A DNA stretch of 64,000 bases, taken from contig NZ_CP116808.1 of the NCBI RefSeq assembly GCF_028464065.1, positions 1,327,886 to 1,391,885 on the forward strand. Reading direction: 5' to 3'. Below are positions 17,955 through 45,511 of this stretch, piece after piece. Each line of letters begins with the position of its first letter. Position 1 is the first letter of the stretch. Source of the DNA: Saprospira sp. CCB-QB6 (lineage in GTDB: Bacteria > Bacteroidota > Bacteroidia > Chitinophagales > Saprospiraceae). A program made the position numbers and the translations under genes. The notes below the pieces were generated by a model. That model was not told the DNA's origin and did no database searches. It saw only the letters and a list, made by a program, of their open reading frames with translations.

Positions 17955-18200
17955 TTGCTGCTGTTTTGGGGCCTGCAGCGGGCGGTTACTCCCTTTGGTC
18001 GTCGAACTGCAGCCTAAAGGCCTTGTTGTCGTTGCGCAGCTCGCTGCTGTTTTGGGGCCTCCCGCCTGCGGCGGGCGCTACGTTTCGCAGCTCGCTATTC
18101 GCTCGGCCCTTCAGCGCTTCGCGCCTCGGTCTGGCCTGCGGCCACTGCTGCACATCGCTAGGCCAATTGGCCCCCTGGGCCAAAGGCGGCTCCGCCGCCT
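17955..18200 (+). repeat. REP/MITE-like element, about 1.5 tandem units
   Basis: Two successive TTTTGGGGCCT... starts; the second half is near-identical to the copy inside the TPP riboswitch (40078-40205). Confidence 0.65.
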
Positions 18201-37345: not shown

Positions 37346-38752
37346 ATGAAAGTTGAACAGCTGTATACTGGATGTCTCGCACAAGGTGCCTACTATATTG
37401 AATCTGAAGGCGAAGCGGCTATCATTGACCCCCTTCGTGAAACTGCCCCTTATTTGGAAATGGCCGAAGAGCGTGGCGCAAAGATCAAATACATCTTGGA
37501 AACTCACTTTCATGCCGACTTTGTTTCTGGTCATATCGATCTAGCTAAGAAATCGGGCGCTCAAATTGTCTTTGGCCCCAAAGCAGAAACTGGCTACGAC
37601 GCTTATGTCGCTAAAGATAATGAGGAGTTGAAGCTTGGAAAGTTGCGCATCAAAGTATTGCACACTCCTGGCCACACTCAAGAGTCTAGCAGTTTCCTTC
37701 TGCTTGATGAAGAAGGCGAACAACTCGCCATCTTTACTGGTGATACTCTATTTATTGGAGATGTTGGACGCCCTGACCTCGCCATTAAATCAGATGTTAC
37801 TATGGACGATTTGGCTGGCATGCTCTACGACTCGCTTCACAATAAAATCATGCCCCTAAACGACGATCTCATCGTTTATCCTGGCCATGGCGCTGGCTCT
37901 GCCTGCGGTAAAAATATGTCTAAAGAAACTTATGCTACTTTGGGCAACCAAAAAGAGTTTAACTACGCACTACAACCCATGAGCCGCCAAGAATTCATCA
38001 CTAAAGTAACTGCGGGCTTGGCTACGCCTCCCCAATACTTTGGCTATAACGCTATGATGAATAAAGCTGGTTACAATAGCTTCGATGAAGCCCTCGCCCA
38101 AGGAACTACTCCCCTAGATATAGAAGCCTTCAAAGCAGAAATGGCAAAAGGAACCCTTATCCTCGATACCCGCCATCAAGATGTCTTTGAAAAAGGATAT
38201 ATCCCTGGCGCAATTAGCATCGGCCTAGATGGTAATTTCGCTCCCTGGGTAGGCGCTATGATCGTAAACCTCCAACGCCCTATCTTACTGATCGTGCAAG
38301 AAGGCCGCGAAGAAGAAGCCGTTACTCGCTTGGCTCGCGTAGGCTACGACAATGTGGTCGGCTTCCTTAAAGGTGGACTAGATGCCTGGACTGCCGCAGG
38401 AGAAGATGTTGCCACCGTAAAAACTATTCCCGCTACCGAATTGGCCCAACTGATCGCCAAGGAAGATGACTTAAAGGTAATTGATGTCCGCAATGAAGGA
38501 GAATTTATCTCTGAACACCTTCTCGCCGCGACCAACTACCCCCTAGCCGAAATGGCTAAACAAGTAGAGGATCTGGACAAAAAAGCAACTTACTATGTCC
38601 ACTGTGCCGGTGGATACCGCTCAATGATCGCCTCTGCCGTACTCCAAAATATGGGCTTCGAAAATATTATTAACGTAGCCGGCGGCTTTACAGCCATCAG
38701 CGAAACAGATGCGCCCAAAAGTGACTACGTTTGCCCTTCTACCCTACTCTAA
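37346..38752 (+). CDS. persulfide dioxygenase (ETHE1-like MBL fold) fused to two rhodanese domains (CstB-like)
   Basis: N-terminal MBL motif ETHFHADFVSGH...HTPGHT; C-terminal rhodanese active-site Cys in YVHCAGGYRS. Confidence 0.7.
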   Translation: MKVEQLYTGCLAQGAYYIESEGEAAIIDPLRETAPYLEMAEERGAKIKYILETHFHADFVSGHIDLAKKSGAQIVFGPKAETGYDAYVAKDNEELKLGKLRIKVLHTPGHTQESSSFLLLDEEGEQLAIFTGDTLFIGDVGRPDLAIKSDVTMDDLAGMLYDSLHNKIMPLNDDLIVYPGHGAGSACGKNMSKETYATLGNQKEFNYALQPMSRQEFITKVTAGLATPPQYFGYNAMMNKAGYNSFDEALAQGTTPLDIEAFKAEMAKGTLILDTRHQDVFEKGYIPGAISIGLDGNFAPWVGAMIVNLQRPILLIVQEGREEEAVTRLARVGYDNVVGFLKGGLDAWTAAGEDVATVKTIPATELAQLIAKEDDLKVIDVRNEGEFISEHLLAATNYPLAEMAKQVEDLDKKATYYVHCAGGYRSMIASAVLQNMGFENIINVAGGFTAISETDAPKSDYVCPSTLL

Positions 38753-38864
38753 CACAACCATAGAGCACACCCAATTATACAACTATCACCACTAAAGAAA
38801 AGCGCCTAAACCAGCAGGCAACTAGCTGGTTTAGCGCCTTTTTCTAGCTAAATTTCAATTCATC

Positions 38865-39470
38865 ATGTTCTTATTTGCGCAAGATGTTACAGAGATGTTG
38901 TCCCAACCTTGGCCCTGGTATGTGGCCGGGGCAATGATTGTCCTCGTTATGCAACTCCTCGTTTTTAACGGCAAATCCTTTGGCGTTTCCGCTAGCATGC
39001 GCGCCGCTTGCTCCGCTATGGGCGCAGGCAAAAGTGTCTCTTTCTTCGATTTTGACTGGAAAGGAAGCCAAGGATGGAATATGCTCTTTATCATCGGTGC
39101 CGCTATCGGAGGTTTTATCTCTATGCAGTTTATCTCTGGCAGCGAACCTATGGAACTAGGTGCCAGAACGATTGAATACGTAGAAAGCATCGGTTTCTCC
39201 GCCCCCACAGCAACAAACGGTAAAACCAACCTCTTGCCCCAAGAAATTAGTGACCCCAATTTTGTCTTCTCCGCTAAAGGCCTGTTTATTCTCATCTTTG
39301 GTGGACTCCTTATCGGATTTGGCGCCCGCTATGCCGGCGGCTGTACCTCTGGCCACGCAATTAGCGGCCTGTCTCAACTCCAAATCCCTTCTCTTATCGC
39401 TGTAATCGGCTTCTTTATCGGCGGCCTAACAATGACTTACTTTATCCTGCCACTACTTTTTGGCGCCTAA
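38865..39470 (+). CDS. YeeE/YedE-family sulfur-compound transporter, N-terminal half
   Basis: Family signature YAGGCTSGHAISG. Confidence 0.7.
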   Translation: MFLFAQDVTEMLSQPWPWYVAGAMIVLVMQLLVFNGKSFGVSASMRAACSAMGAGKSVSFFDFDWKGSQGWNMLFIIGAAIGGFISMQFISGSEPMELGARTIEYVESIGFSAPTATNGKTNLLPQEISDPNFVFSAKGLFILIFGGLLIGFGARYAGGCTSGHAISGLSQLQIPSLIAVIGFFIGGLTMTYFILPLLFGA

Positions 39471-39897
39471 ATCTACCTATGCTATGAAGTTTGTAAAATA
39501 TCTAGGTCTGGGCATCCTCTTTGGCGTGGTCATGACCAAATCAGAAGCCGTTTCTTGGTACAGAATCCAAGAGATGTTCCTCTTCGATAATTTTCACATG
39601 TACGGAATGATCGGCACCGCCGTCATCCTCGGTATTATCACTACCGCCCTAATCAAAGCACTCAAGCTGCAAACCTTTAAGGGCGAAGAAATTAAGTTCC
39701 ACCCCAAAAATATGTCTATTCCTCGCTACCTCATCGGTGGCATTATCTTCGGCCTCGGCTGGTCCATGACCGGCGCCTGCCCCGGCCCAATGTATACCCT
39801 ACTCGGCCAAGGCTATTGGGCCGTACTCATTATTATCGCTTCTGCCCTAGTCGGTACTTACCTATACGGCGCCCTGCGCTCCAAATTACCGCACTAG
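39460..39897 (+). CDS. YeeE/YedE-family sulfur-compound transporter, C-terminal half
   Basis: Second conserved Cys motif MTGACPG; overlaps the upstream gene by 11 nt (translational coupling). Confidence 0.7.
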   Translation: MAPKSTYAMKFVKYLGLGILFGVVMTKSEAVSWYRIQEMFLFDNFHMYGMIGTAVILGIITTALIKALKLQTFKGEEIKFHPKNMSIPRYLIGGIIFGLGWSMTGACPGPMYTLLGQGYWAVLIIIASALVGTYLYGALRSKLPH

Positions 39898-40054
39898 TCC
39901 GCATATAATTTAGCTAGTTGTTTGGACCGGACGACTAGTCTAGGAGGGGAAATCGGTCTGGCTCATCTTCTTTTATAGAGGATGGGCCTTTTATTTTTCC
40001 TCCCTAGCCTAAACTTTTGCCTCAAAAGTTCCTTAACTTTGACAGCAATACATC

Positions 40055-40281
40055 CACTTTAGGGGTGTTTAGTTTTTTTTTAGGGGCCTCCCGCCTGCGG
40101 CGGGCGCTACGTTGCGGGGCTCGCTATTCGCTCGGCCCTTCGCAGGCTTCGCCTGCTCGGTCTGGCCTACGGCCACCCCTCCACATCGCTAGGCCAATAA
40201 CGCCCAGCCACTAAGCAAAAACTAAACTGAGAATAGACCCTTATCACCTGATGCAGCTCATACTGCCGTAGGGAAAAGTGC
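40055..40281 (+). promoter_or_regulatory. TPP (thiamine pyrophosphate) riboswitch with a REP element inside the P3 loop
   Basis: AGGGGUG at 40061-40067. The 3' core CUGAGAAUAGACCCUUAUCACCUGAUGCAGCUCAUACUGCCGUAGGGAA (40227-40275) is near-identical to the thiM consensus CUGAGAAAUACCCGUAUCACCUGAUCUGGAUAAUGCCAGCGUAGGGAA. P1 is CACUUU/AAAGUG. P3 is UUUAGUUUUU/AAAAACUAAA flanking the inserted repeat. Confidence 0.8.
40078..40205 (+). repeat. REP/MITE-like element copy located inside the TPP-riboswitch P3 loop
   Basis: TTTTAGGGGCCTCCCGCCTGCGGCGGGCGCTACG...GCTCGCTATTCGCTCGGCCCTTCG...GGTCTGGCC; near-identical to 18060-18200. Confidence 0.7.
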
Positions 40282-40346
40282 CGTCCTCTCTCTTCAGGAT
40301 AGCCATACCTATGCCAGCCAAGAGCCGCCTAAGCCATAGAAATCCT

Positions 40347-40562
40347 ATGCCGAACGCTATCCAAATTTATCTCAATGGCCAAGCCATGAGCTGCCCCACA
40401 AATTATAGCCTCTTCCAACTCCTCCAACAATTAAATAAAGAAGAGGAAGGCGGCCTCGCCCTCGCCCTCAATCAAGAGGTCATCCCCAAAGCCCTCTGGG
40501 CCAACACTTTTCTAAACGACCAAGATCGCGTTTTACTCATTACGGCTACCCAAGGCGGTTAG
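40347..40562 (+). CDS. thiS: ThiS sulfur-carrier protein (70 aa, C-terminal GG); the ORF track start at 40278 is probably too early
   Basis: Ends ...LLITATQGG; lies between the riboswitch and thiC. Confidence 0.65.
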   Translation: MPNAIQIYLNGQAMSCPTNYSLFQLLQQLNKEEEGGLALALNQEVIPKALWANTFLNDQDRVLLITATQGG

Positions 40563-40581
40563 CCCCAATTTGCTATGCTAA

Positions 40582-42465
<1,884 letters not shown>

Positions 42466-42477
42466 AGATAGCTCCCC

Positions 42478-42656
42478 GCCCCTTCTGCGGGCTTCGCCCG
42501 CAGAAAAGGAGCGCAGCGACTGGCTGAGGGATGGTAGGCAGTGGCCCAAAGGGCCAGACCAAAGGCTTTTGAAGTGAAGCGAAAAAGCCTGAAGGGCCGA
42601 ACGAACAGCGAGCTGCCGAACAGCCCGACCCGCCCGCAGGGCGGGGCAGCCCCAAA
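42478..42656 (-). repeat. REP/MITE-like element copy inside the thi operon (between thiC and tenI-like)
   Basis: GGCTGAGGGATGGTAGGCAGTGGCCCAAAGGGCCAGACC...AGCGAGCTGCCGAACAGCCCGACCCGCCCGCAGGGCGGGGCAGCCCCAAA. Confidence 0.7.
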
Positions 42657-42668
42657 TCATTCATCTAA

Positions 42669-43343
42669 TTGTTAAAGGCCTCTACTATGGGGCCTTTGGC
42701 TTTTGAAATAGAAAAAATGAAGATCAGATTATTGACACATCCCGAGCTCTTGACGGATGAAATACAACTTATCAATGCCCTTTTTGCAGAGGGTCTAGCC
42801 TGTCTCAATTTGCGTAAGCCCAATTTTACGGCCCAGCAATATGAGGACTTTCTGGCCCAAATTGATGCCCAATACCACCCCAAAATTATTTTGCACGACC
42901 ATTATGAACTCTGCGATAAATATAAGGTGCAGGGGATTCATTTGGGCGAGGCCCGCCGCCGCAGTTATAGCCCAGAAGAACTCTTGGCCCTCCGCCAAAA
43001 GCTCCAAAAAGCAGGCTTGGCCCTAGGCTCTTCGGTACATGAACGCAGCACTTTAGACGAATTGGCCCCCAAGCATTTCGATTATATTTTTGTGAGTCCC
43101 GTCTTTAGCTCGATCTCTAAGCAAGGCTATGGCCCCAAAGAAGATTGGAGCATTAGCCCCTACAAGGACCAATATGATTTTAGCCTTGTGGGCTTGGGCG
43201 GCATTGATTTGGACAGCCTAGCTGCCGCCGCCGAAAAAGGCTTTGAAGAAGTAGGCGCTCTAGGCTCCGTTTGGCTCAAAGGCGAGGCCGCCCCCGCCTA
43301 TTTTGCTAAAATGCTTGCAGCATGTCAGGCCCTTTTGTCTTAA
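42669..43343 (+). CDS. ThiE/TenI-family protein (probable TenI-like thiazole tautomerase or second TMP synthase)
   Basis: GIHLGE...SSVH...DYIFVSPVFSSISK...GLGGI motifs of the TMP-synthase/TenI fold. Confidence 0.55.
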   Translation: MLKASTMGPLAFEIEKMKIRLLTHPELLTDEIQLINALFAEGLACLNLRKPNFTAQQYEDFLAQIDAQYHPKIILHDHYELCDKYKVQGIHLGEARRRSYSPEELLALRQKLQKAGLALGSSVHERSTLDELAPKHFDYIFVSPVFSSISKQGYGPKEDWSISPYKDQYDFSLVGLGGIDLDSLAAAAEKGFEEVGALGSVWLKGEAAPAYFAKMLAACQALLS

Positions 43344-44083
43344 GTATTGCGGGTTTTGATCCCTCTGCAGGGGCCGGCCTTTTGGCCGATATCAAAACCT
43401 TTGAACAGCTGGGCGTCTATGGCCTCTCGGTTTGTAGCGCCCAAACCATACAACGGCCCGGCTGCTTTGCCGATTTGCGCTGGACCGAAGCCGATTGGGT
43501 GGAGCGACAACTGGCCTTTTTGCTACAAAGCTATACGCCCAAGGCCGTGAAAATCGGCATTATTGGAGACTTGGCCCTTTTGGGTCGCCTCTTGGACCAA
43601 CTAGCGGCCTTGGCCGCTCCGCCCCTGATTGTTTGGGACCCCGTGCTTAGTGCCTCTGCGGGTTTTGACTTTCAGCAGGCCGATGCTTTTGAAGACCTCA
43701 AAGCACTGATTGAGCGAGTGGATGTTTTTATGCCCAATCGCCAAGAGCTAGAGCGCCTTTGGCCCAAACAATCGCCCTTAGCCGTGGCCCAAAGCATTAG
43801 CCAACAAACGGCTTTATTGCTTAAAGGGGGACATGATCCCCAAGCGAAGGGATTGGACCAACTCTTTTTGGCGGGCGAGCTAGCCGCTCAATGGCCCCCC
43901 AAAATGATTGCTCCCCAAGACAAGCATGGAACAGGTTGCGTGCTTTCCTCTGCCCTAACCGCCTTTTTGGCCCTAGGGCTCCCCTTAACCACAGCCTTTG
44001 GAAAAGCCAAAGACTACAACCTTCAATTTATGAACAGCCAGCCCTCTCTGCTCGGTTGGCACAGGAGCTATCAAGATGAGTAA
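43322..44083 (+). CDS. thiD: hydroxymethylpyrimidine/phosphomethylpyrimidine kinase ThiD
   Basis: VLSIAGFDPSAGAGLLADIKTF N-terminal signature; C-terminal GTGCxLSSA. Confidence 0.75.
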   Translation: MSGPFVLSIAGFDPSAGAGLLADIKTFEQLGVYGLSVCSAQTIQRPGCFADLRWTEADWVERQLAFLLQSYTPKAVKIGIIGDLALLGRLLDQLAALAAPPLIVWDPVLSASAGFDFQQADAFEDLKALIERVDVFMPNRQELERLWPKQSPLAVAQSISQQTALLLKGGHDPQAKGLDQLFLAGELAAQWPPKMIAPQDKHGTGCVLSSALTAFLALGLPLTTAFGKAKDYNLQFMNSQPSLLGWHRSYQDE

Positions 44084-44732
44084 AAAAGAAATTGCCGCCT
44101 TACAATATGTGAGTAGCGGGCAGCGAATACAAGAACATCTGGACCAAATTGCAGATTTTCTGGCGGCAGGTGGCCGCTGGGTTCAACTTCGCCTCAAAGA
44201 AGTGAGCCAGGCCGATTATTTGGCCGCTGGAAAAACCGCCCGCGCTATCTGCGATCAGCATCAGGCCCAACTCATTATTAACGACCAAATTGAGGTGGCC
44301 CAAGCCGTAGCCGCCGATGGCCTACACCTAGGCCGTAGCGATATGCCCTTGGAGGAAGCTAGGGCCATTCTGGGCCCAGGTTTTATTTTGGGCGGCACCG
44401 CCAATAGCTGGGAAGATATTCAGGAGGTTTATTTGGCTGGAGCCGATTATATTGGGCTGGGCCCCTTCCGATTTACCCCCACCAAAAAGAAATTAAGCCC
44501 TATTTTGGGCATGAAAGGCTATCGCGAACGGCTGCAACAACTAGAGCGCAAGGGCTGGGAGATTCCCATGGTCGGTATTGGCGGCATTAAGCTAGCCGAT
44601 ATAGAAGGCTTATTGCGGACTGGTCTGCATGGGGTGGCCCTTTCTGGCCTAATTAACCAAACGACAGACAAAAAGACCCTAGTCAAAACAATTTATCAAC
44701 TTTTGGAAATGGCCCCTAGCGGGTATAAATGA
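44076..44732 (+). CDS. thiE: thiamine-phosphate synthase ThiE
   Basis: LQYVSSGQ...VQLRLKE...INDQIEVA...DGLHLG...[13 protein letters not shown]...VGIGGI. Confidence 0.75.
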
Positions 44733-45511
44733 AGATAGGCATGGATACATTAAAAATTGCCGATAAGGAATTTAACTCAAGATTATTTACGGGCACAGGC
44801 AAGTTTGCCTCTTCTGCCCTGATGCGGGAGGCCCTTTTGGCCTCTGGTTCGGAGCTGGTCACGGTGGCCCTCAAGCGGATGAATGTGGAGAAGTCAGAGG
44901 ACCCTATTGTGGACCAGCTCGATGCACCGCATATCCACCTTTTGCCCAATACCTCTGGCGCGCGCACGGCCGAGGAGGCCATTTTTGCGGCCCAATTGGC
45001 CAGAGAAGCCTTGGGGACCAACTGGTTGAAACTCGAAATTCATCCAGATCCCAAATACTTGATGCCCGATCCCATCGAGACCCTCAAAGCTGCCGAAAAG
45101 CTCGTCAAATTGGGCTTTGTGGTCCTGCCCTACATCCATGCTGATCCCGTGCTTTGCAAGCGCTTGGAAGAGGTAGGCGTGGCTGCCGTCATGCCTTTGG
45201 GCTCGCCAATTGGGAGTAATAAGGGCCTGAGAACCCTAGATTTCCTAGAGATTATCATTGAGCAAAGTCAGCTGCCCGTGGTGGTCGATGCGGGTATCGG
45301 TAGCCCTTCTGATGCCGCCAAAGCCCTAGAAATGGGGGCCGATGCGGTTTTGGTCAATACCGCTATTGCCGCCGCTCAAGACCCAGTAGAAATGGCCAAA
45401 GCCTTTAAATTGGGCGTTATGGCGGGGCGCATGGCCTTTGAGGCCCGCCTAGCCGAGCAGCGCATGGGGGCCGAGGCCAGCAGTCCCTTGACCTCCTTCC
45501 TTGGCGATTAA
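44729..45511 (+). CDS. thiG: thiazole synthase ThiG
   Basis: [20 protein letters not shown]-terminal signature and (beta/alpha)8 ThiG core. Confidence 0.8.

Follow-up and report, generated by a model that had tools for sequence, protein, structure and literature searches.

The leader of the thi operon of Saprospira sp. CCB-QB6 raises the question of whether a TPP riboswitch aptamer can remain intact when its P3 loop is occupied by a copy of a dispersed repeat. We analyzed this locus within a stretch of 64,000 nucleotides of the genome (hereafter, the window). Our results suggest that an intact TPP riboswitch aptamer probably controls thiS-thiC-tenI-thiD-thiE-thiG, and that a clade-specific, self-folding repeat inserted into its P3 and has been tolerated there.

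Both halves of a thi-box aptamer precede thiS

A complete TPP (thi-box) aptamer lies at 40055-40280 of the window, 5' of thiS-thiC-tenI-thiD-thiE-thiG (Table 1), and the segments that form the ligand pocket and the junction (GGGGUG, CUGAGA, ACCUGAU and CGUAGGGA) were all found in it. The original prediction had placed a thi-box aptamer upstream of thiS-thiC; its AGGGGUG, CUGAGA and ACCUGAU...CGUAGGGAA blocks are present as described, with the core extending to 40275, and so is the AU-rich stem between GGGGUG and CUGAGA, in which GUUUAGUUUUU pairs with AAAAACUAAAC over 11 bp. Its statement that the core matches the E. coli thiM aptamer almost base for base was too strong. Between CUGAGA and GGGAA, 37 of 49 positions (76%) are identical to the thiM sequence of PDB 2GDI; the conserved junction segments do agree, and the identity is concentrated in them. 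With the 3' core as query, BLAST returned no meaningful match in E. coli genomes.

The two basal strands of P3 are separated by 139 nt (40078-40216). Measured from the 5' 11-mer to CUGAGA, the P3 span is 159 nt in the window, compared to 8-26 nt at 42 Bacteroidota thiC loci. The 5' motif CUUUAGGGGUG (40057-67) is common to the window aptamer and to 42 relatives, and the 11-mer CTTTAGGGGTG, which also heads the aptamer at 42 related thiC loci, occurs once in the 64-kb window against 0.09 occurrences expected.

Upstream of P1, the pattern TTTG...TAACTTTG resembles, from its sequence, a Bacteroidota promoter. The TAACTTTG box of this putative promoter ends 13 nt 5' of P1; TAACTTTG or TAATTTTG is similarly placed in three relatives (L001, L086 and L093), and the promoter pattern is identical in the sister lineages B and C described below. 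Directly upstream of the thi operon, at 37346-39897, the window also carries a metallo-beta-lactamase/rhodanese fusion gene and two half-size YeeE/YedE-type sulfur-transport genes. Their synteny with the thi operon is kept in lineages A, B and C, and they may be relevant to the supply of sulfur for ThiS and thiazole synthesis.

Table 1. Position, strand and supporting evidence of the features at the thi locus, numbered from the first letter of the window.
Feature	Position	Strand	Evidence
Intrinsic-terminator-like hairpin and T-run ending the upstream sulfur-transport/rhodanese genes	39960-39998	+	Terminator scan; Pfam on ORFs
Putative Bacteroidota-type promoter (TTTG 40016-19, TAACTTTG 40034-41)	40016-40041	+	Pattern read from sequence
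P1 5' strand, CACUU	40055-40059	+	MFE fold; model R1 alignment
P2 5' strand, UAGGGGU (pyrimidine-sensor side)	40060-40066	+	MFE fold; model R1
AGGGGUG motif (GGGGUG 40062-67)	40061-40067	+	
P3 basal stem, 5' strand GUUUAGUUUUU	40067-40077	+	11 bp with 40217-27
Structured repeat copy in the P3 loop (about 120 nt, sense orientation)	40079-40197	+	nhmmer, 94 bits, E=2e-28; family alignment, covariation
Locus-specific tail after the repeat copy	40198-40216	+	2 changes across lineages B and C
P3 basal stem, 3' strand AAAAACUAAAC	40217-40227	+	MFE fold; pair probability; model R1
J3/2 with invariant CUGAGA (40227-32)	40227-40236	+	Rfam alignment
P2 3' strand, ACCCUUA	40237-40243	+	MFE fold; truncated RF00059 match; model R1
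P4/P5 pyrophosphate-sensor arm, ACCUGAU (40246-52) and CGUAGGGA (40267-74)	40244-40274	+	RF00059 5'-truncated match
P4	40247-50 with 40269-72	+	Pair probability 0.92
P5	40253-56 with 40263-66	+	Pair probability 0.98
P1 3' strand, AAGUG	40276-40280	+	MFE folds; model R1
Candidate expression platform, GGAUAGC (40297-303) with GCUAUCC (40356-62), enclosing the thiS start codon (40347)	40284-40362	+	MFE folds
Operon proposed to be regulated	40347-45511	+	Pfam
thiS	40347-40562	+	Pfam
thiC	40594-42465	+	Pfam
Second repeat copy, between thiC and the next gene	42521-42657	-	nhmmer; orthologous in lineages A, B and C
tenI-like	42669-43343	+	Pfam
thiD	43322-44083	+	Pfam
thiE	44076-44732	+	Pfam
thiG	44729-45511	+	Pfam

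A lineage-informed covariance model spans the insert

The original prediction had looked to the Rfam TPP model (RF00059) to call an aptamer across the insert, and this did not happen: over the whole window, RF00059 gave no match at its gathering score of 54.3 bits. A permissive search returned 31.6 bits for 40203-40293, in an alignment that took CCACU (40208-12) as a surrogate P1 and skipped the 5' strand of P2 together with P3. When the pieces were searched separately, the 3' piece matched RF00059 as a 5'-truncated TPP aptamer (42.2 bits, E=9e-8), and the 39-nt 5' piece (40040-40078), being too short, gave no TPP match. A 2024 survey of fungal TPP riboswitches has reported that RF00059 often truncates or misses aptamers with a P3 longer than about 60 nt, and that lineage-specific covariance models rescue the detection of such long-P3 aptamers (PMC11683625). 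The failure of RF00059 in the window can therefore be attributed to the length of P3 and is not a valid refutation of the aptamer.

We built a second model, R1, from 27 ordinary Bacteroidota thiC-leader aptamers and 3 sister-lineage sequences, with the window's own lineage excluded. The model owes its acceptance of a long insert to the sister lineages, which have the insertion in common with the window, and its scoring of the core to the ordinary aptamers. R1 produced a single match in the window, at 40049-40290, with 75.0 bits (E=2e-20) over all 97 model positions; ordinary aptamers that were held out reach 53-94 bits with R1. The alignment took the whole insert as one P3-loop insertion and flagged no non-canonical pair in the window.

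The split aptamer is conserved in three lineages

The ThiC protein of the window is 82-89% identical, among the matches listed, to those of Aureispira and other Saprospiraceae MAGs. Insert-free orthologues of the aptamer pass the gathering score of RF00059, with 74.5 bits and a P3 of 16 nt in L086, 70.9 bits and 26 nt in L001, and 64.4 bits and 41 nt in L085. All three start with xACUUUAGGGGUGU like the window (GGGGGUGU in L085), and the P3 sequence of these nearest insert-free orthologues is unlike that of the window. Both halves of the window aptamer have orthologous counterparts in the ordinary aptamers found at this locus in Aureispira and other Saprospiraceae, which speaks against the possibility, raised with the original prediction, that they come from unrelated elements. 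The 41-nt P3 of L085, a Saprospiraceae MAG, holds the inverted repeat AGUUUUGUAAUUACAAACU with one mismatch, so P3 length is already variable in the family without the repeat. A further ThiS-like ORF precedes the riboswitch in L085 (spans 1944-2162 and 2462-2581).

Protein-anchored look-ups yielded three lineages in which the insert has the same position and orientation: A (the window, L081 and L082), B (L094, L095 and L096) and C (L083 and L097-L100). Across five genes, 21-22% of third codon positions differ between the window and lineage B and between the window and lineage C. The aptamer core (40054-77 plus 40217-83) differs from the window at only 3 of 90 positions in B and 1 of 91 in C. 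These changes consist of an A-U to G-U replacement in P3 of lineage B that keeps the pairing, a junction base at which the family consensus varies and a base in the P5 loop, and all 23 of the 23 consensus pairs are canonical in A, B and C. The insert diverges from the window by 9% in B and 16% in C, where a 42-bp module is added. Conservation of the aptamer core is significant against the third-position rate (P<=1e-6) and relative to the remaining non-coding sequence of the locus (Fisher P=2e-4 for C, 3e-4 pooled); for lineage B alone, the aptamer is not significantly more conserved than the rest of the intergenic region, which is also conserved (P=0.22-0.32). The scarcity of aptamer changes beside the diverged codons and insert indicates that the insertion predates the split of the lineages and that both halves are under purifying selection. 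No other evidence argues as strongly for a working split aptamer as this conservation does, and on that basis the aptamer is probably functional.

A comparison with an empty site in related genomes had been suggested, and no such site was found within the clade. Among the matches listed in a scan of genomes with ThiC, the relatives had 82% identity or less, included no Saprospira genome and gave no close empty site, and an exact look-up of the window's ThiC matched no record; insert-free orthologues were present only in more distant relatives, and a DNA-pattern scan of metagenomes recovered unrelated TPP switches only. Five short-read contigs (L082, L095, L096, L098 and L099) all start inside the riboswitch repeat, which indicates that assemblies break there, so that in many metagenomes the aptamer's 5' half will be missed.

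Expansion at a different site was seen in uncultured Fluviicola MAGs, where the thiC-leader TPP aptamers of L018 (3524-3662) and L025 (3130-3267) carry an insertion of about 46-49 nt with two extra hairpins between the 5' strand of P4 and P5. The two MAGs do not share the sequences of these hairpins, the L025 fold is very stable (z=-4.6), and a third Fluviicola locus (L017) is without this insertion.

The insert belongs to a dense family of structured repeats

The presence of a repeat copy in the P3 loop, claimed from the outset, was confirmed with nhmmer, which found 21 full-length copies in 64 kb (about 1 per 3 kb), in both orientations and all effectively intergenic. The limits first given for it (40078-40205) did not hold, as the conserved core is 40079-40197. 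Every copy starts with (T/A)TTTGGGGC and finishes with ..(A/C)(A/G)GCC. In the P3 copy, GGCCU (40085-89) and AGGCC (40191-95) form the terminal helix, while CUAAG in the tail (40211-15) pairs with UUUAG (40079-83) and lengthens P3 by 5 bp. Judging by its letters, AATAACGCCCAGCC in the tail resembles a second, degenerate version of the repeat's 3' end.

Aligning 23 copies gave support for a closed nine-helix fold with paired 5' and 3' ends. In this fold, 96.9% of cells are paired and 19 of 30 pairs show compensatory change; the covariation score is 0.44 compared to 0.13 in shuffles, none of 500 shuffles is as good, and slid controls score far lower. The terminal helix has only 5 bp (GGCCU with AGGCC, or GGCUG with CAGCC), and these covary. 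The self-complementarity originally noticed in the insert is thus that of a covarying closed fold, and its paired ends mean that the insert sits on P3 as a closed side-domain, which explains how it fits in a hairpin loop. An invariant G-U pair makes the fold strand-specific, and the orientation of the riboswitch copy places the G-U-containing strand in the mRNA.

Direct repeats compatible with a target-site duplication were present at no more than 1 of the 21 copies, for any k of 4-8 and any offset. Flanks are complementary only at the P3 copy (duplex z=-2.9, against -1.9 to +1.3 for the other copies). We considered and rejected a preference of the repeat for hairpin loops, since only the P3 copy has complementary flanks, and a T-run as the insertion target, since TTTT belongs to every copy, whatever is upstream. 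Of the two proposals, that the repeat was selecting a permissive loop or surviving only in one, the data accordingly favour survival. The label REP/MITE is apt as a resemblance and fails as a definition, there being no target-site duplication and the unit not being a 20-40-nt palindrome.

The repeat has no match in Rfam and was absent from phage records and from 813 kb of other Bacteroidota loci. On the Saprospira grandis plasmids of about 54 kb, we observed 13 (NZ_CP110855.1) and 14 (NC_016936.1) copies at about 84% identity, with no annotated feature beneath them. Within incomplete full-text coverage, a literature search found nothing relevant on Saprospira repeats, and the family seems to be uncharacterised.

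Comparison of orthologous copies (42521-42657 against L081, L094 and L097; the P3 copy against L094 and L083) showed that the framework is almost invariant, with conservation far above that of third codon positions. Single hairpins are swapped wholesale for other fully complementary versions that are also present in paralogous copies, as with GGCCC-TTT-GGGCC and GCGGC-TGC-GCCGC, and the central hairpin of the P3 copy exists in three versions. One repeat module differs even between the window and the near-identical strain L081. This pattern points to gene conversion between copies or to structural selection. The hairpin at 40142-40156, GCAGGC-TTC-GCCTGC in the window, reads GCAGGC-GAA-GCCTGC in the near-identical contig L081; such an exact inversion is, on sequence grounds, the signature of a template switch. 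A second small module, GCCTAAAGGCCTTGTTGTCGTT (window, about 18012-18033), adjoins the repeat copy at 18050 and also forms the extra 42-bp segment in the P3 insert of lineage C (L083, 2470-2515), and short GC hairpins, for example GCGGCGGCTTCGCCGCC, come after many copies. The adjoining modules and GC hairpins show the repeats to be mosaic.

About 10 of the 21 copies lie within about 130 nt downstream of the 3' end of a gene, in the sense (G-U-containing) orientation, and two convergent gene pairs have two facing copies each (34681/34872 and 45576/46320). This placement hints at a 3'-UTR or RNA-level role.

Predicted folding of the aptamer with its insert

The unconstrained MFE structure of 40050-40290 contains P1 (5 bp), P2 (7 bp), P3 (11 bp and the 5-bp extension) and P4/P5, with the insert forming a branched domain atop P3. 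The same P1-P5 architecture was obtained in the unconstrained MFE of five out of five natural full-length variants. Together with the R1 match across the insert, these folds uphold the earlier suggestion that the aptamer may still fold. Ensemble pairing probabilities with the native insert were 0.37 for P1, 0.35 for P2, 0.94 for the AU-rich basal stem of P3, 0.92 for P4 and 0.98 for P5. The comparison of folds with and without the insert, proposed with the original prediction, was made against a P3 capped by GAAA and gave equal helix probabilities, within rounding.

When the insert was replaced by 150 dinucleotide-shuffled versions, 73% kept every aptamer helix in the MFE, and none reached the P3 pairing probability of the native insert, which was the best. 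Since most shuffles are harmless, the fold prediction shows that P3 is permissive and not that the insert is special. In these thermodynamic models the P3 loop is broadly permissive, with the native insert predicted to be among the least disruptive.

In the crystal structures of the thiM and A. thaliana ThiC aptamers, the L5-P3 tertiary contact involves proximal P3. By analogy, the 11-bp basal P3 stem should preserve this contact in the window aptamer.

A proposed model for the control of thiS

Bacteroidota are a phylum largely without Shine-Dalgarno sequences, and the candidate expression platform encloses the start codon of thiS (Table 1). The segment UCAGGAUAG is also partly complementary to the aptamer segment UAUCACCUGA, and L086 has an analogous complementarity (AGGUAUU with AAUACCU). 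As lineages A, B and C conserve the sequence of the platform, its pairing shows no covariation. A terminator scan of the mRNA strand found no terminator-like hairpin followed by a T-run inside the insert; apart from the terminator of the upstream genes, its sole other site, 40050-40068, is the 5' strand of P1/P2 followed by the U-run of P3.

We propose, with low confidence as far as the modelled platform is concerned, that control would proceed as follows. Before the divergence of at least three lineages that exist today, a repeat copy probably entered the distal loop of P3 and left the 11-bp basal stem in place, so that the insert would point away from the ligand pocket, as a closed side-domain of several hairpins. 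Transcription would start near 40050 and read through the insert, and the aptamer would fold as usual, with P1, the P2/P3 pyrimidine arm and the P4/P5 pyrophosphate arm. Binding of TPP would stabilise P1/P2 and free the downstream segment, so that GGAUAGC could pair with GCUAUCC and sequester the thiS AUG region, switching translation off. Without ligand, UCAGGAUAG may pair with UAUCACCUGA of the aptamer instead. The insert would be a tolerated passenger, and selection would have eliminated insertions in other parts of the leader.

Alternative explanations for the locus

That the insert is such a passenger is the most likely reading, and it has to be weighed against co-option, in which the insert would serve as a protein or RNase III site (making a two-piece riboswitch), as a kinetic spacer for ligand sensing or as a stabiliser of P3. 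The retention of the insert through about 21% synonymous divergence speaks for such a use, as do the preservation of all family helices in three orthologous versions despite a wholly different central hairpin sequence, the orientation, which gives the G-U-containing, fully paired fold, and a P3 pairing probability above that of any of the 150 shuffles. However, framework conservation and hairpin swapping were also found in the copy downstream of thiC, outside any riboswitch, and they are therefore a property of the repeat family and not of the P3 locus. The helix probabilities equal those of a GAAA-capped P3, and relatives work with a P3 of 8-41 nt. Co-option is thus an unlikely explanation. 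A closely related idea, to which we also give only a small chance, is that the insert is active. The family, with its strand-specific fold, near-invariant framework and exchanged hairpin cassettes, may act at the level of RNA, and in P3 the repeat could then supply the riboswitch with another input, such as a protein or RNase site, or make it a processed, two-piece one. Repeat capture could, more generally, have given rise to the long P3 of eukaryotic TPP riboswitches.

The insertion might instead have broken the aptamer, leaving the operon constitutive or otherwise signalled and the two halves not yet decayed. A score below the gathering score of RF00059 is what a dead riboswitch could give, and the aptamer of lineage B is not clearly more conserved than the neighbouring non-coding DNA. 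Against this, P3 length accounts for the RF00059 result (PMC11683625), and the aptamer has accumulated 1-3 changes per about 90 nt compared to 21% at third positions and 9-16% in the insert. Every one of these changes is structure-neutral and all consensus pairs have stayed canonical, so that loss of function is very unlikely. Finally, the alignment given by cmscan (31.6 bits) could be taken at face value, with only 40203-40293 a thi-box remnant, P1 formed by CCACU (40208-12) and the upstream GGGGUG unrelated to it. This alignment is without the 5' strand of P2 and without P3, and an alignment spanning the insert scores 75 bits. CUUUAGGGGUG occurs only once in the window and agrees exactly with the 5' motif of 42 related aptamers, and its distance to TAACTTTG equals that in L001. 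The motif and the spanning match effectively refute CCACU as the true P1, and we give a chance juxtaposition hardly any credence.

Comparison with known systems

With bacterial TPP riboswitches (RF00059; the E. coli thiM and thiC leaders), the window aptamer shares the three-way junction, the conserved segments and the position in the leader of a thi gene. It departs from the ordinary ones in its P3 of 159 nt, compared to 18 nt in the E. coli TPP aptamer (PMC11683625), in the origin of the extra length, a dispersed-repeat copy, and in being missed by RF00059 at the gathering score. In fungal TPP riboswitches P3 averages about 150 nt and reaches 172 nt (PMC11683625), in line with the original remark that P3 tolerates length variation and is long in eukaryotes. 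As in the TPP riboswitches of fungi and plants, the expansion affects P3, and the aptamer in the window is detected by a dedicated model where RF00059 fails. The fungal and plant riboswitches, with a P3 of 100-170 nt, are eukaryotic and control splicing, whereas the window riboswitch is bacterial and its expansion has an identifiable origin in a repeat copy.

The repeat itself is like the REP/BIME (REPIN) elements of Proteobacteria in being high-copy, GC-rich, intergenic, hairpin-forming, present in both orientations, often located just 3' of genes and mosaic. It is unlike them in its unit, which is a multi-branched structure of about 120 nt with an invariant framework, found in Bacteroidota, and not a 20-40-nt palindrome or an inverted pair of these. 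Bacterial MITEs in mRNAs (Correia/NEMIS, ERIC and RUP) are, like the window repeat, non-coding repeats of about 100-150 bp with paired ends that fold as RNA; the window repeat differs from MITEs in having no target-site duplication and a 5-bp terminal helix in place of long terminal inverted repeats, and we know of no parent IS element for it. The intervening sequences of 23S rRNA, where the tip of a helix is exchanged for additional structured sequence and the RNA keeps its function, provide another parallel to the P3 insert. These are excised by RNase III, whereas nothing at the window locus shows processing.

Within incomplete full-text coverage, the literature yielded no riboswitch aptamer that harbours a REP, MITE or transposable element. 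In principle the case is no surprise, since the length tolerance of P3 is already known. What is new here is the combination of a bacterial host with a eukaryote-sized P3 of identifiable dispersed-repeat origin, which extends a known tolerance and brings no new mechanism.

Significance

The locus represents a natural insertion experiment, in which P3 has carried a foreign, GC-rich and self-folding RNA segment of about 140 nt through species-level divergence with the aptamer under selection. The insert thereby documents in vivo the modularity that structural work had implied, and the capture of a repeat offers a concrete origin for long P3 domains. Since the standard Rfam model misses the riboswitch in the window, repeat-rich genomes may hide riboswitches of this kind, and the thi operon would be annotated as unregulated. 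Our results also draw attention to a very dense family of Saprospira repeats with strong structural covariation.
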